NCBI RefSeq assembly: GCF_003790525.1
Contig: NZ_CP033635.1
Reading direction: 5' to 3' (one strand)
Length of the DNA stretch: 64,000 bases
Origin: Escherichia coli
GTDB taxonomy: Bacteria > Pseudomonadota > Gammaproteobacteria > Enterobacterales > Enterobacteriaceae
The stretch's first letter is position 1. Every line of letters starts with the position of its first letter. This document shows positions 42,001-51,000 of the stretch, one piece after another. Made by a program: the position numbers.

Positions 42001-45000
42001 CGCGTGCGCTATCCACTTTTTTGCTCGCCCATATTCAACGGCTTCTTTAAGGAGTTCATTTTCCATCGTTTTTTTGCCGAGCAGACGCTGGAGTTCTTTA
42101 ATCTGCTTCATGGCGGCAGCAAGTTCAGAGGCAGGAACAACCTGTTCTCCGGCGGCGACAGCAGTAAGACTTCCTTCCTGGTATTGCTTACGCCAGAGAA
42201 ATAACTGGCTGGCTGCTACACCATGTTGCCGGGCAACGAGGGAGACCGTCATTCCCGGTTCAAAACTCTGCTGAACAATAGCGATCTTTTCCTGTGTAGT
42301 ACGCCGTCTGCGTTTCTCCGGTCCTAAGACATCAATCATCTGCTCTCCAATGACTAGTCTAAAAACTAGTATTAAGACTATCACTTATTTAAGTGATATT
42401 GGTTGTCTGGAGATTCATGGGGCCAGTCTACTCCCGCATTAAAATATACTGTTCTTTCCGGATAATTACGTTAAAATAGACACCTGCGTGCATCTGTGTC
42501 AGACTCCGTTAGATACCAGCGTACATTGTAAACATGCCGGATGCACGCAATACAATAATCGGTCTTTTCGGAGTTATAGTCGCCAGGCTGGCATCCCGTA
42601 AATATGTATCAGGTAGCAATTCAGGAAGCGAACAAAAGCGCCTGGAGAAGGTTATCTCTGATAATAATTTACATGAAATGTCTCCTTTATTCTTCGCGAA
42701 TAAGGCCTTCAGTGTTCTCCCCTTTTCAGCAATTCTTACCGTAGTAATCACTCCTGCCTGTGTATAACACGAGAATTGCCAGAGTTTAACGTTTCGGTAT
42801 CGTTATCCTGCATGATGTTGAACAGAACCGGGCGTGAATTCTGCGCCAGAATTTTCTTTCGAGGAACATTCCGGGTTATCTGTAGTACAGGAGGAGATTT
42901 TCTCCTATTTCAAATAAAATTCAATGACAGGTGAATATTTAAATATAAATGCATCGCTTCAACAGAGAAATCGGAATTACGCCCGGAACCAGGCCTGAAT
43001 GAATAATGGAGTAGGTAAAATAATATTATTGATGAAACTATCAAATCAAGTCCCCCTTCTCCTTCCCCAGCTTAAATATACTTACTTTTTCACTGGATAA
43101 TATGTTATTGAATTACAAAGTTGATCCTGATATACAGGATTTCCGGCTCTTGCATCCAGTGATAACTTTATATAGTCCTGCAAAGGCGAACTTCGTAAAA
43201 GTATACTTTTCTGTTGTAAGCATTGAGGTATCGAAAATGAGTGAGAATACCGGAAAATCCCATGAAAATAAAATGGTTATTATTGACTGCGGGGAATATG
43301 ATGAATACCTTCGTAACGCGTGGTTCCGAGGTTTTCGGGAAGGTTATGATATGGCGATGAAATTTGGATTAGGCTGCCAGCAATGTTATGAAACAGGTGA
43401 AAAAATAGCATGCGCAAGAGCTGAAGAATGCCGTAAAAAGATTAAGGTAATAAAACACTGAAACGGGCTGTCTGATATTTCTGTGAGCTAAAAAGACACC
43501 GTAATACAGGTATCTCACAGTAACTGAAAGATATGCACATGCCGCCAGGGAAGATTAAGGGTAAGGGAGGATATCCCTTACCTGATTGATTATGGGATGA
43601 TACCACAGGCAATTCTTGCACCACCGCCACCTAGAGGTTCAGGATGGTCATCATGATTATCACCTCCTGCGTGGAGCATTAGCGAACGGCCATCGAGCTC
43701 CTTTAATTCAGATAGTCTTGGCGCAAGCACCGGGTAGGTTGCTTTTCCGTCATGAGTGACATAAAGCGCAGGGAGATCACCCAGGTGGCCATCAGGAGAC
43801 CATGGACCGAGATGCTTCCCTGTTTTTTCCGGGTCAAAGTGACCACCTGCAGATAAAGCAGCGACAGTTTTTCCATCTTTCAGGGCAGGAGCACAACTTG
43901 CGTTTTCATGTACATGAAAACCATGAATGCCGGCGGGTAAGGAGTGAAGATCAGGGGTGAACAGCAGCCCGTAGGGTGTCTTCTGGATGGTTATTTTACC
44001 AATATTTCGCTCTTTTCCGTCACTATCAACAAGATTCATTGTTACATCTTTGGTGGCTGCATATCCACAGGATGATGTAGCCAGAATCACAAAGGCAATA
44101 AGTTTACGTTTCATAAACCCTCTGTTAACAGGTTAAAGATTTACTCAATAACTGTTGCGAAATAACAGTCAGCCAGATTTCAGGGGGATGGCTGTGCGCG
44201 AAATGAAGCTTACTGCATCATGACCTCACGAACGAAATCTTTTTTGAGCTGTGTACTGTACGCTTTGCCATAAAACTTCACCGTGGGCTCCGGGATCTCA
44301 TTCAGATCCGGACGGAGCTGTTTGTTCATCGGCGTGGAGCCGAAGACTTTACTCAGTGCATGTTGCGTTTCAGGCTGAATCAGCCAGTTGAGGAATAAGC
44401 GTGATGCCGCCGGATGTGGGCTGTTGGCGGCAATGGCAGCGATGTTACCGCCGCCAGGCATGCCAAACTCCGGTACGTAAAATTTCAGCCGCGAATTGAT
44501 AGCCCCGGTTTTTTGTAGTCCGACAAGATGATCTTCCCAGGATGGTGTCAGCATCAACTCGCCGTCATTCAGGCGTGTCAGACTATCAGCACCGGAGGCC
44601 GTGCGGGTAATTTTGTCCTTATTAGCGGCAAACCACTGCCAGCCTTTCTGCCAGTTTTTCACCACTGCCGGGTCAACGCTCTCCGCTTCGCTGTTAAACG
44701 TGTCGCCCTGAGTAGTGACGATGCGCTGGATAAAGGCTTCCCCAGCGCCGCCGTTGTTCGGGTCGTTATAGCCGAACTTTTTCGGGTTGGCGTCGATAAA
44801 GCTCTGCAACTGCTCCAGCGTTTGTGGCAGCGCCCGGTCACCCATCTGCTGCGGGTCGTAAGCAAATCCGGTCTGGTTGCCCCAGAACGCCACGGCATAA
44901 CCCTGGGTGTCAACGTTCTGAATCTGGTGAATGGCGTCGCCATAGCCCGGCAAATCGTCCACCTTCGCCAGCGCTTTCGCTCCCATTGCCACTGGCAGTT

Positions 45001-48000: not shown

Positions 48001-51000
48001 CAGCCGCTCGGCCCAAGCAGGGTCACGAACTCCCCCTCTTCGGCGCAGAACGAGATTTCTCTGGCGGCATAGAATTCGCCGAAGGTTTTGGTCACCTGTT
48101 CCAGAACCAGTTTTGACATGAGTCTCTCTTCTATCGGTTAAAAAGATGATTATTAAATTTACATACTAAACATTAAATTTATGTGACACAGATCCTTAAA
48201 GCTAAAAAATGATCTAAATATCAAATTAAAATCATATAAAACAATGGATTAACCATAAAATAACAAAAACATCTTTCACATTTAAATTTAAGTAGTAAAG
48301 TTAATTACCATCTTACATTCGAGAGGAAAAGAAGATGGCGTTTAACTTTCACCGGGCGGCAGAGGGGATCGTGCTGGCCAACAGCCACCGAGGTTATTCC
48401 AGCTGCGCGCCGGAGAACACATTCCCGGCCTTTGAAGCCGCCCGCCTGGCGGGAACCCACTGTATTGAAATCGATATCCACCTGACGGCGGATAACCAAC
48501 TGGTGGTCACGCACGATCACCGTATCGACCGGGTATCCACCGGACACGGATTTGTGGAGCAGATGACGTACCCGCAGCTGCTGGCGTGCGACTTTGGCGT
48601 GAAATACCATCCGTCGTTTGCCGGAACGCGCATCCCCTTGCTGGCGGACGTGCTGCGCTGGGCGGTGGAAAACAGCATGGGGCTGATTGTTGAGGTCAAA
48701 CAGCGCAACCGCCATGACGAGTTTGTGGCGGCGCTGGTCGCACTGCTGCATGAGCATCTGGATGCCCTCGGCCATATCCAGTTGCTGGGCTTCAACCATG
48801 TGCTGATCAACCGGGTGAAGGCGCAAATCCCGCAACTGGCGTTACAGGTGGTGACGCTGGAGCGCTACAATAACCAGCTTGCGGCGGTACAGCAGTCCAA
48901 TGCCGGATGCGTCTGCTTTGAGTTCGAGTTCGCCCATATCGACGACCTGCGGGCCTACAAAAATGCCGGACTGGGCGTGCGGATGTATCTGCATGAAATG
49001 AAAAACGGCATGACGCCGCTGGAGCAGTACGACTATAAATTCGGCTGTGACAGTCGTCCGGTGATTATCGGCTGGATGCAGGCGGGGCTGATTGATATGC
49101 TCAGCCACGATGATATTCCGTATTTGCAGGGACTGATTGAAGAAGCAGGCCTGCGCTGGAACTAGAAAAATAAGGACACCATGAACGCCCACTCTGAACG
49201 CCTTGAACTACGTGGTTCGCAGCGCCTGCTGCTGGAACTGATCCGTCTCCACGCCCCGGTGACGCGGGCTGAACTGGCACGGCTGTCGGGACTGACGGCG
49301 GGGGCGATCACCCAACAGTGCCGAGAGCTGATGTTCTCCGGCCTGGTGGTGGAAGGGGAGCGCAATACCGGGCAGCGCGGCCAGCCGTCGCTGCCGTTGC
49401 GCCTTAACCCCGGCGGCGGTTGTGCTATCGGGTTGTCGTTCAGTCCCGGTTTTATCGATATGACGGTGGTCGATCTCAGTGGTCGCCAGCTGCTGTCGCT
49501 TTGCGAAGCACATCAGGAGAATCAGCCACTGGAGGCCTCTCTCGCGCAGATCAAAACCTTGGTGGAGAAAATGCTGAAAAAGCGCCAGCTCCAGCACGCA
49601 CGTATTCTCGGCATTGGCTATGCAGTGCCCGGATTTCTGAAAGCGGATGGTCGCAAGCGCCACAGCGTACCGTGGCTGGAGAGCTGGCGTGAGGTAGATC
49701 TCCAGCAGGCGTTTGCCGACAACCTGCCGTGGCCGACGTGGGTGGAAAATAATGCCAACGCCTCGGCGGTAGGTGAACTGTACAGCGGCAAATGGAATGC
49801 GTACAGCGATCTAACCTTTATCGACCTTGGCTACGGTATCGGCGCGGGTATTATCTCCGGGAATAAAATGCTACGCGGCGGGTTCTGCAATGCCGGTGAA
49901 GTCGGGATGGCGTTTCCATCCGGTACACCGCGCCCGTCGTATAAGGATTTGCTTGCCACACTGGAGCGTGAAGGATTCAGTGAAACTAAGCTACCGGAGC
50001 TGATAGCCGGGCAGCACCCACTGCTGGAAAGCTGGTTTGAACGCTGTCGTGGCCAGGTGGAGCAGACGCTCTTCAGCTGTGTGCAGTGGGTAGACCCGCA
50101 AATCATCGTACTCGGTGGCGCGATGCCGAAACCAATTATCAGTCGTCTGGTGCAGGAACTGAATCAACTGATGGAAGCCTGCCTCGATCCCAACCGCCCC
50201 AGAGTGAAGTTAGCTGCCTCTTCGATGGGAGCACAGAGTGCGTCATGCGGCGCGGCGATGCTCCCGTTGTATAAGGTGATTAATAATGGATAAGAAGTTA
50301 TGTGATTGTTGCTTCTGAAAGTGATATTTTATGTTGTTAAAATGTAAAGTAATAATACAATGAGCTATCCATGATGGGGTTCTGTAAATAAACAAAACAC
50401 TCTCTTCAATTCTGCTCACCTTCGGTATTTGTGTATCATCACTGGCTACTGATAAAAACAGAACCGTCAGTTTTCCACGATGTGAAGGGCAGGAATCATC
50501 GGCTGTTGCAGCCAGCGTCAAACGGGACTATCTCCAGAAACAGGTGCTTCACTGGAAAGATGACTAGGTGATCTTCAGTCAGCAGCATCCTGTTGTCTGG
50601 GTGAATCTTCGTGAGCTGGTAAGTAAAGGTGATAATTTAGTCACAGTGCATCTCACCGCCCGGGGGAAGAAAGCCGATATTCAGTATCGGGTGCGCATTG
50701 ACTGTAAGAACGAAAACGCTATCTGGCAGCGCCAGAGATGAACGTATGGAGATAATCACAGAGTATGAACAAAAGGACTCTACATGTTCATTATGACTAA
50801 AAAACGCTGTTTTATTTTACGTTGCTGTCATAACGTGTTTATCTCAATTTTCGGGAACATGTTCTTAGCGGTTAGACTGGCCCCCTGAATCTCCTGCGTT
50901 TGAAGGACAGTAACAGGTTAAGTGATAACAGATGTATGAAAATATAGAGATACATCCAAGGAAGAGCCACTTTTGCGCCGTTCGTGACAGTTTTGTCATG

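Follow-up and report, generated by a model that had tools for sequence, protein, structure and literature searches.

We analysed a 64-kb stretch of the Escherichia coli contig NZ_CP033635.1 (assembly GCF_003790525.1; hereafter the window), in which sodC, a gene for an accessory periplasmic Cu,Zn superoxide dismutase (SOD), lies next to genes for an ATP-binding cassette (ABC) importer, a phosphodiesterase of the GDPD family and a transcriptional regulator of the ROK family. The seven genes named in the original prediction lie where it had placed them: all were called as open reading frames (ORFs), the same seven are annotated by RefSeq/PGAP in strain 135, and Pfam assigns their products to Sod_Cu, SBP_bac_8, BPD_transp_1 (two proteins), ABC_tran, GDPD and ROK with an N-terminal winged helix. 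They make up two unrelated units that adjoin in a genomic island rich in insertion sequences (IS). The features are as follows, with the basis of each in brackets.

42430–44178, no strand: sodC segment, a mobile piece with sodC, a small hypothetical ORF and IS3 remnants (homology blocks in strains B771 and S51)
43559–43583, both strands: terminator-like hairpin just downstream of sodC
43590–44114, minus strand: sodC, accessory periplasmic Cu,Zn-SOD, 174 residues (Pfam, NCBIfam)
44179–44187, no strand: junction between the sodC segment and the six-gene cassette (ends of homology on either side)
44188–50284, no strand: six-gene mobile cassette encoding ROK regulator, GDPD, ATPase, two permeases and binding protein (Salmonella homology)
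44210–45289, minus strand: ORF of the periplasmic substrate-binding protein, of which 44210–45286 encodes 358 residues from an ATG start (Pfam SBP_bac_8)
45308–46192, minus strand: ABC permease 2, 278 residues from the native start at 46144 (Pfam BPD_transp_1)
46132–46236, no strand: 48-bp perfect tandem duplication, 2.2 copies, where the permease genes meet
46189–47055, minus strand: ABC permease 1, 288 residues (Pfam BPD_transp_1)
47052–48119, minus strand: ABC ATPase with a MalK/UgpC-type C-terminal domain, 355 residues (Pfam ABC_tran)
48120–48334, no strand: divergent control region, 215 bp (phylogenetic footprint)
48153–48161, 48173–48181 and 48282–48291: candidate ROK operator cores TTAAATTTA, the last palindromic (footprint)
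48182–48197: CRP-like site TGTGA-N6-TCCTT (invariant TGTGA-N6-TC, likeness to the known CRP consensus)
48335–49165, plus strand (divergent): cytoplasmic GDPD-family phosphodiesterase, 276 residues (Pfam GDPD)
49181–50293, plus strand: ROK-family transcriptional regulator with an N-terminal winged helix, 370 residues (Pfam ROK, HTH_24)

The cassette and the accessory sodC

The boundary between the two units is placed by homology from either side. In strain B771 sodC adjoins sitABCD and in strain S51 it adjoins dptFGH, and the blocks shared with the window (99.1–99.7% identical) both end exactly at 44178, a point 64 bp before the start codon of sodC. The 6.1-kb block 44188–50284 matches, in one piece and at 91.5% DNA identity, a Salmonella enterica locus (L005), an integrative element in which the six cassette genes sit among genes for DndB, a TraI_2 relaxase and an integrase and in which there is no sodC. 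Because homology ends at 44178 in the strains with sodC only and starts at 44188 in Salmonella, the sodC segment and the cassette are two independently mobile pieces, set nine bases (44179–44187) apart. In S51, dptFGH occupy the position beside sodC that the cassette holds in the window, and the Salmonella cassette lies near dndB; these dpt and dnd neighbours hint at a common ancestral island that was deleted differently in each lineage.

The two units also differ in how widely they occur. Among the 5426 complete E. coli genomes that formed our survey sample, the whole 7.6-kb region is complete in 20, whereas the sodC allele is found at at least 99% identity in 125, often without the transporter. 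Moreover, none of 75 related loci of other species, taken from species-representative genomes in which ORFs were called, neighbouring genes clustered and clusters annotated, encodes a SodC. The 20 genomes with the full locus come from chicken or poultry meat (12), black kite (2), human (2) and isolates with no host listed (4), and birds account for 14 of the 16 with a stated host. The island is of the virulence type, and as an accessory trait of E. coli the cassette is rare and found mostly in isolates from birds.

On the strand that both genes share, the stop codon of the binding-protein gene (44210) is only 95 bp away from the start codon of sodC (44114). No terminator-like site lies in this interval, and a consensus scan of the 64 bp of native sequence upstream of sodC found no convincing promoter, its single match overlapping the coding start. 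Since no terminator-like site parts the two genes and a hairpin follows sodC, read-through from the transporter operon is possible, and sodC may be transcribed in this way as a by-product of the juxtaposition. The same arrangement would also suit a view in which sodC is a functional part of the locus, co-selected or co-regulated with the transporter and protecting the periplasm while a nutrient is used in an oxidative host niche; the original prediction had likewise joined sodC and transporter in one functional combination. We consider this very improbable, given the sharp recombination junction just upstream of sodC, the other neighbours of sodC in strains that have it without the cassette, its five to six times wider occurrence than that of the cassette, and the cassettes without sodC in Salmonella and in all 75 loci of other species. 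A functional link between sodC and the cassette is not supported, and we regard their adjacency as an accident of island assembly.

The sodC product itself scores above the cut-offs of the NCBIfam SodC equivalog (NF007628; 218.4 bits against 165, over residues 1–173) and of Pfam Sod_Cu (PF00080; 111 bits against 28.9). In an alignment with the SodCI structures 1eqw and 6d52, its Cu and Zn ligands (six His and one Asp) and its disulfide Cys pair are identical, and the motifs HGFHVH, GGH, GKH, GHLGD, LH and C...C are aligned. The N terminus qualifies as an export signal, and alignments of the mature protein start near residue 21–23. The signal sequence holds both a Cys in a weak lipobox-like context (ATSSC) and a plausible signal-peptidase-I site (GYA/A), and that of SodCI holds a similar LISC. 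The original description of this sodC as divergent is fair relative to K-12 SodC, to which the protein is 56.6% identical when the two are compared, while identity rises to 67.3% with Salmonella SodCI and to 76–83% with 175-residue E. coli SodC variants; at the DNA level, the gene is 76.6% identical to sodC of O157:H7 and other enterohaemorrhagic E. coli (EHEC) strains. Judged by these identities, the protein is closest to the 175-residue E. coli variant and SodCI. K-12-type sodC is present in 5425 of the 5426 genomes, and therefore the island gene is a true second copy. Like SodCI, encoded on the Gifsy-2 prophage, and the 175-residue EHEC variant, it is a horizontally acquired second Cu,Zn-SOD gene beside the core sodC, although the window copy lies on an IS-bounded island fragment and the SodCI copy on a prophage. 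The island sodC is an ordinary member of this group of acquired copies, which is already known biology, and its product would add periplasmic superoxide protection on top of that provided by the core gene.

Importer, esterase and regulator of the cassette

The binding protein belongs to Pfam SBP_bac_8 and has a Sec-type signal peptide. Hidden Markov models (HMMs) argue against its being a polyamine or iron(III) binder, the class that the original prediction had named as incompatible with it, since NCBIfam scores are far below cut-off: the best are 61 bits against 203 for PRK11622, 34 against 310 and 27 against 395 for PhnS, and 19 against 725 for YdcS, and no PotD, PotF or FbpA model is matched at E ≤ 0.001. 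Thus, none of the NCBIfam cut-offs for polyamine, ferric, thiamine or 2-aminoethylphosphonate binders is reached. Against PDB sequences, the best E value is about 1e-5 for the protein by itself and 5e-9 when a profile of 41 family sequences is used, and an AlphaFold model (pLDDT 88.5) leads, by Foldseek, to folds of the FbpA/PotD/PhnS class and of sugar binders at 12–19% identity. There is no significant BLASTP match between the binding protein and UgpB (E = 0.34 over 25 residues). It has 423 homologues at E < 1e-5, none with a functional name; identity within the Enterobacterales is 91% in Salmonella, 86% in Klebsiella, 78% in E. fergusonii, 77% in Yersinia pestis and about 62% in Providencia and Proteus, and reaches 45–50% in Pasteurellaceae and Vibrionaceae.

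The ATPase matches the UgpC model over its whole length (residues 1–352) and thus has a MalK/UgpC-type C-terminal domain; Pfam TOBE_2 is not reported for the window protein and appears as a faint match in a Vibrio orthologue only. In NCBIfam it comes closest to PhnT2, UgpC and PotA without reaching the cut-off of any of them (UgpC, NF008653, 333 bits against 432), and it is 37% identical to K-12 UgpC. The 48-bp tandem duplication lies at the stop/start overlap of the permease genes and leaves both ORFs intact. Because of it, permease 2 no longer has its native start (46144) beside the permease 1 stop, and a further in-frame start arises upstream, at 46192, that would add 16 residues. Among the 20 genomes with the full locus, H1–H3 align over the duplication in one piece and H4–H20 in two or three pieces, and most of the latter have overall spans 48–53 bp shorter than the query, a difference measured over the span as a whole.

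The esterase is a clear match to Pfam GDPD (PF03009; 95.4 bits against 23.6), and its catalytic motifs are intact, HRG, PENT, ExD, HD and ExK being common to it, UgpQ and AccF in an alignment. It scores below the equivalog cut-offs of both UgpQ (NF006989; 107 bits against 264) and GlpQ (NF008354; 34.9 against 254), and only its N-terminal 60 residues match the latter. The N terminus has no hydrophobic stretch, and the catalytic HRG motif comes as early as residue 18, which means that the protein lacks a signal peptide. The absence of a signal peptide, together with the low GlpQ and UgpQ scores, makes this a cytoplasmic GDPD-family enzyme and not a GlpQ-like one, so that the term used in the original prediction was imprecise. 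In BLASTP, the protein is 31% identical to AccF of pTiC58 over 256 residues (115 bits, with no family threshold existing for AccF) and 27% identical to K-12 UgpQ (75 bits), and it has a C-terminal extension in common with AccF that is absent from UgpQ. A translated search of plasmids returned a Vibrio orthologue first (61% identity) and then, as the best further relatives over the full length, proteins of Agrobacterium Ti and Ri plasmids (131 Agrobacterium records); the match on pTiC58, the one inspected, is accF, within accR-accABCDE-accF-accG. By sequence comparison, the window enzyme is closer, by a modest margin, to AccF than to UgpQ.

The regulator matches Pfam ROK (PF00480; 86.2 bits, cut-off 22.9) and HTH_24 (22.0 bits, cut-off 21.9). 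In canonical ROK repressors and kinases such as Mlc and NagC, zinc is bound by the motif ExGH with CxCGxxGC. At the position of this motif, the window protein has NAGEVGMAFPSGTPRPS, in which both the His and the Cys cluster are missing, and the motif is absent from all 53 transporter-linked ROK members (the window protein and 52 others) and from 7RHE, the best PDB match of the regulator. Judged by this motif, these zinc-less ROK proteins are a distinct sub-family. The divergent control region carries a footprint kept across nine Enterobacterales whose proteins are just 61–91% identical, and four of the five TTAAATTTA matches in the window fall within it, against 0.87 expected. We read these cores as a candidate ROK operator. 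At the CRP-like site, the Providencia sequence is TGTGATTTAGCTCATC. No Pho box was seen in the control region by eye, without formal scoring, and no riboswitch or other known RNA was matched there in Rfam at E ≤ 0.1. This pattern of sites is more in keeping with a locus of carbon catabolism than with one of phosphate starvation.

The cassette family and its probable cargo

Related cassettes occur in Enterobacterales (including Yersinia pestis and Salmonella), Vibrionaceae, Pasteurellaceae, Rhizobiales and Rhodobacterales. Linkage was counted over the 70 loci with a called binding-protein gene. The same ROK family is adjacent in 46 of these and the same GDPD family is present in 34, while a 2H-superfamily phosphoesterase (Pfam DUF1868) is found in 18, with three more slightly farther off; seven loci have both esterases, and two have a different GDPD type (GDPD plus DUF4996). 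Some phosphodiesterase, be it GDPD, 2H/DUF1868 or both, is thus linked to the transporter in about 50 of the 70 loci, in several gene orders:

Enterobacterales and many Vibrio: ROK, GDPD, then the divergent ABC operon
Pantoea, several Vibrio and Photobacterium: 2H, ROK, GDPD, ABC
Alphaproteobacteria and an actinobacterial metagenome-assembled genome: ROK, ABC, 2H
Pasteurellaceae: GDPD, ABC, sometimes ROK
Haemophilus and Aggregatibacter: ABC alone

Further genes are sometimes found beside the transporter, namely a gene of the inositol-monophosphatase (IMPase) family directly downstream in four loci and a phosphohexomutase gene adjacent in six. In the Vibrio coralliilyticus group (L004:10453-13392; L055–L058, L068, L081), the transporter is flanked by genes for a phosphohexomutase, a 533-residue protein and a GT1 glycosyltransferase, which may represent a different downstream pathway for the same cargo; the 533-residue protein (c11) has no match in Pfam or the PDB. 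The neighbours in Haemophilus and Aggregatibacter (FKBP, YheO, CitMHS, MFS, PntAB, ThiL-like, UvrC, TilS and Eda) were considered as well and are unrelated housekeeping genes that offer no clue.

For DUF1868, the sole structural match is the structural-genomics entry 2FSQ (Atu0111), no homologue carries a functional name, and the literature searched does not mention the family. Its transporter-linked members (for example L065:11155-11874; homologues P0259–P0353) have homologues of 49–55% identity in many fungi, including Colletotrichum, Trichoderma, Mycena, Coniochaeta and Fonsecaea, which is unusually close for a bacterial–fungal pair. A literature search on the cassette by protein accession and keyword found nothing relevant.

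Two unrelated esterase folds have repeatedly been recruited beside one transporter, and nothing else speaks as strongly for a phosphodiester or cyclic phosphate as the cargo. In addition, 52 residues of the binding protein are invariant, among them W41, R48, W135, N137, W216, W218, D234, S235, R238, W250, D252, H253 and Y270, and they are kept almost without exception in loci of the GDPD type, loci with only a 2H enzyme and loci with the transporter alone. Their retention whatever the esterase suggests one ligand class. On balance, the cassette probably serves the import of an organic phosphodiester followed by its cleavage in the cytoplasm, in keeping with the uptake and hydrolysis of a phosphodiester or related nutrient originally predicted, for which the linkage to phosphodiesterases in many loci and several orders now provides support. 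Following the logic of E. coli ugp/ugpQ and Agrobacterium acc, we infer the ligand class, the order of steps and the roles of repressor and CRP in this 6.1-kb horizontally mobile catabolic cassette. The periplasmic binding protein, of the FbpA/PotD fold class, would capture the organic phosphodiester; the ABC transporter would import it; and the cytoplasmic GDPD would split it into an alcohol and a phosphomonoester. The zinc-less ROK protein would repress from the divergent promoter region, where it would bind the several TTAAATTTA cores, with CRP adding catabolite control, and one of the cleavage products, rather than the intact diester, would probably relieve repression.

The cargo within this phosphodiester reading is slightly more likely to be a diester of a sugar or polyol, or else a cyclic phosphate, than glycerophosphocholine or glycerophosphoethanolamine. 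Pointing this way are the sugar-kinase fold of ROK, the IMPase and phosphohexomutase neighbours, the GDPD nearer to AccF than to UgpQ, the 2H enzyme as alternative or partner, and the CRP-like site with no evident Pho box. A rival account is that of a second Ugp-like system for the classic glycerophosphodiesters (glycerophospho-choline, -ethanolamine, -glycerol and -inositol) derived from host or dietary phospholipids, which would yield glycerol-3-phosphate and an alcohol. It draws on the GDPD-family enzyme with all its catalytic motifs, the ATPase with 37% identity to UgpC, the invariant aromatic and acidic residues and two invariant Arg of the binding protein, which fit a cationic head-group and a phosphate, the weak similarity of the binding protein to 2-aminoethylphosphonate binders, and the gut, oral and marine bacteria that host the family and meet membrane breakdown products. 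We nevertheless consider it unlikely, if a serious contender, because the binding protein is unrelated to UgpB, the esterase falls under the UgpQ and GlpQ equivalog cut-offs, the regulator is a ROK protein of sugar-kinase fold and not GlpR or PhoB, no Pho box was apparent to the unscored inspection, IMPase, phosphohexomutase and 2H neighbours are unexpected for substrates that yield glycerol-3-phosphate, and E. coli already has ugp and glpQ.

A further alternative is that the transporter carries no diester at all, its cargo being a sugar phosphate, as with AfuABC, a vitamin phosphate, a polyamine or a metal, and that the adjacency of GDPD reflects a looser metabolic association. Two reports describe transporters of the same fold class that had been taken for iron or polyamine systems in their first annotation and were later shown to carry hexose phosphates or pyridoxal phosphate (PMC4546632, PMC8427247). 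The loci with the transporter alone, about 20 in number, and the adjacent phosphohexomutase of the Vibrio subgroup would also agree with a non-diester cargo. However, two unrelated phosphodiesterase folds stand beside the same transporter in many orders while the binding-site residues are unchanged, the PotD, PotF, FbpA, ThiB and PhnS models of NCBIfam are nowhere near cut-off, and P5PA is matched by fold alone, at 12% identity; a non-diester cargo is improbable.

Several points weigh against the main reading, the import and cleavage of a phosphodiester with a sugar or polyol diester preferred. The loci without an adjacent esterase or ROK gene include Haemophilus and Aggregatibacter, and the E. 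coli cassette itself has neither an IMPase nor a 2H gene. The canonical substrates of GDPD enzymes are glycerophosphodiesters, and the invariant Trp/Tyr and Asp/Glu of the binding protein would suit an amine head-group (choline or ethanolamine) as well. The margin between AccF and UgpQ in their similarity to the window GDPD is modest, AccF and UgpQ themselves scoring 104 bits against each other in BLASTP. The search for a ligand by homology, through PDB sequences, profile and Foldseek, gave only generic folds at low identity, from which no ligand can be inferred, and the operator and CRP assignments come from sequence conservation only.

A broader proposal, which we put forward tentatively and hold to be doubtful as a whole, is that of a widespread, uncharacterised catabolic system for a non-classical phosphodiester or cyclic phosphate (for example, a sugar- or cyclitol-phosphate diester), with a new ligand class for binding proteins of the FbpA/PotD fold, a zinc-less ROK sensor and interchangeable GDPD and DUF1868 esterases; DUF1868 would thereby gain its first function. 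If the import and cleavage of a diester hold true, a conserved transporter family labelled only “extracellular solute-binding protein” or “putative spermidine/putrescine” in databases would have a role; Yersinia pestis, Salmonella, Vibrio coralliilyticus, Pasteurella and Aggregatibacter are among the pathogens that carry it. The reading would also tie the DUF1868 2H phosphoesterases to a defined pathway and provide a second example, outside plant pathogens, of acc-type logic, in which a diester is imported, cleaved in the cytoplasm and sensed through its product. For E. coli, the cassette could then mark a niche-specific nutrient.

The surrounding island and known systems

The island around the two units is a heavily rearranged mosaic. 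Three genes for transposases of the IS256/Mutator family (401–402 residues) lie on the minus strand at 27355–28563, 33655–34860 and 57625–58833, and there are IS3 remnants at 41111–42384 and an IS66 element at 59243–60856. To the right of the cassette are a YebF-family pseudogene at about 50443–50742 (annotated by PGAP in strain 135) and an intact AbgT-family transporter gene at 51792–53351, neither of which is part of the Salmonella cassette. A gene at 53663–57487 on the plus strand encodes a SPATE-like serine protease of 1274 residues with Peptidase_S6 and PIC/HAP1 beta-solenoid domains and is followed by the last of the three transposase genes. Even with the threshold relaxed to E ≤ 1 for the last 350 residues, no Pfam autotransporter beta-domain is matched in this protein, which may be truncated or have an atypical C-terminus. 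Positions 1–25000 match a setC region with an ireA siderophore-receptor gene, a type III translocon gene of the YopB/SseC family and a phosphotransferase system (PTS)/LacI cluster. There are no tRNA genes in the window.

The cassette can be set beside several known systems, of which the acc operon of pTiC58, for the uptake and catabolism of agrocinopine, is its nearest characterised analogue. Like the cassette, acc combines a binding-protein-dependent ABC importer, a cytoplasmic GDPD and a repressor gene in the same locus. AccF cleaves agrocinopine A into sucrose and arabinose-2-phosphate; AccR repression is lifted by the sugar phosphate and not by the diester, and the proposed phosphatase is AccG (PMC4526662). 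The IMPase-family accG has a counterpart in the four related loci with an IMPase-family gene after the transporter, in contrast to the E. coli cassette, where there is no such gene. The components differ in other ways: the acc importer is of the Opp type, with a cluster-C binding protein of about 510 residues (AccA) and two ATPases, whereas that of the cassette is of the FbpA/PotD class, with an SBP_bac_8 protein and one ATPase, and AccR is of the DeoR type whereas the cassette regulator is a ROK protein. In addition, the hosts of the cassette family are animal-associated and marine bacteria, settings in which, unlike that of acc, agrocinopines are not expected.

The Ugp system of E. coli (ugpBAEC and ugpQ) likewise couples an ABC importer to a cytoplasmic GDPD, and its UgpC has the same C-terminal domain as the cassette ATPase. 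However, the cassette binding protein has no detectable similarity to UgpB, and the esterase, with 27% identity to UgpQ, remains under the equivalog cut-off. The cassette also encodes a ROK regulator, has a different gene order with a divergent organisation, and shows no Pho box to the eye. The periplasmic GlpQ of the glpTQ operon has the GDPD superfamily in common with the window enzyme, which lacks a signal peptide, so that in the cassette hydrolysis would come after import instead of before it. AfuABC, an importer of hexose and heptose phosphates, and P5PA, a pyridoxal-phosphate binder, from Actinobacillus and Citrobacter, are, according to the reports on them, systems of organophosphate import in host-associated Gammaproteobacteria that were also first annotated as iron or polyamine systems. 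P5PA (6wce) is among the Foldseek matches of the binding protein, at the low identity given above, but neither system was matched when PDB chains were searched by sequence or by profile, and neither has a linked esterase. Set against these systems, the cassette is ugp/acc logic built from different components, and it represents a widespread, uncharacterised family.

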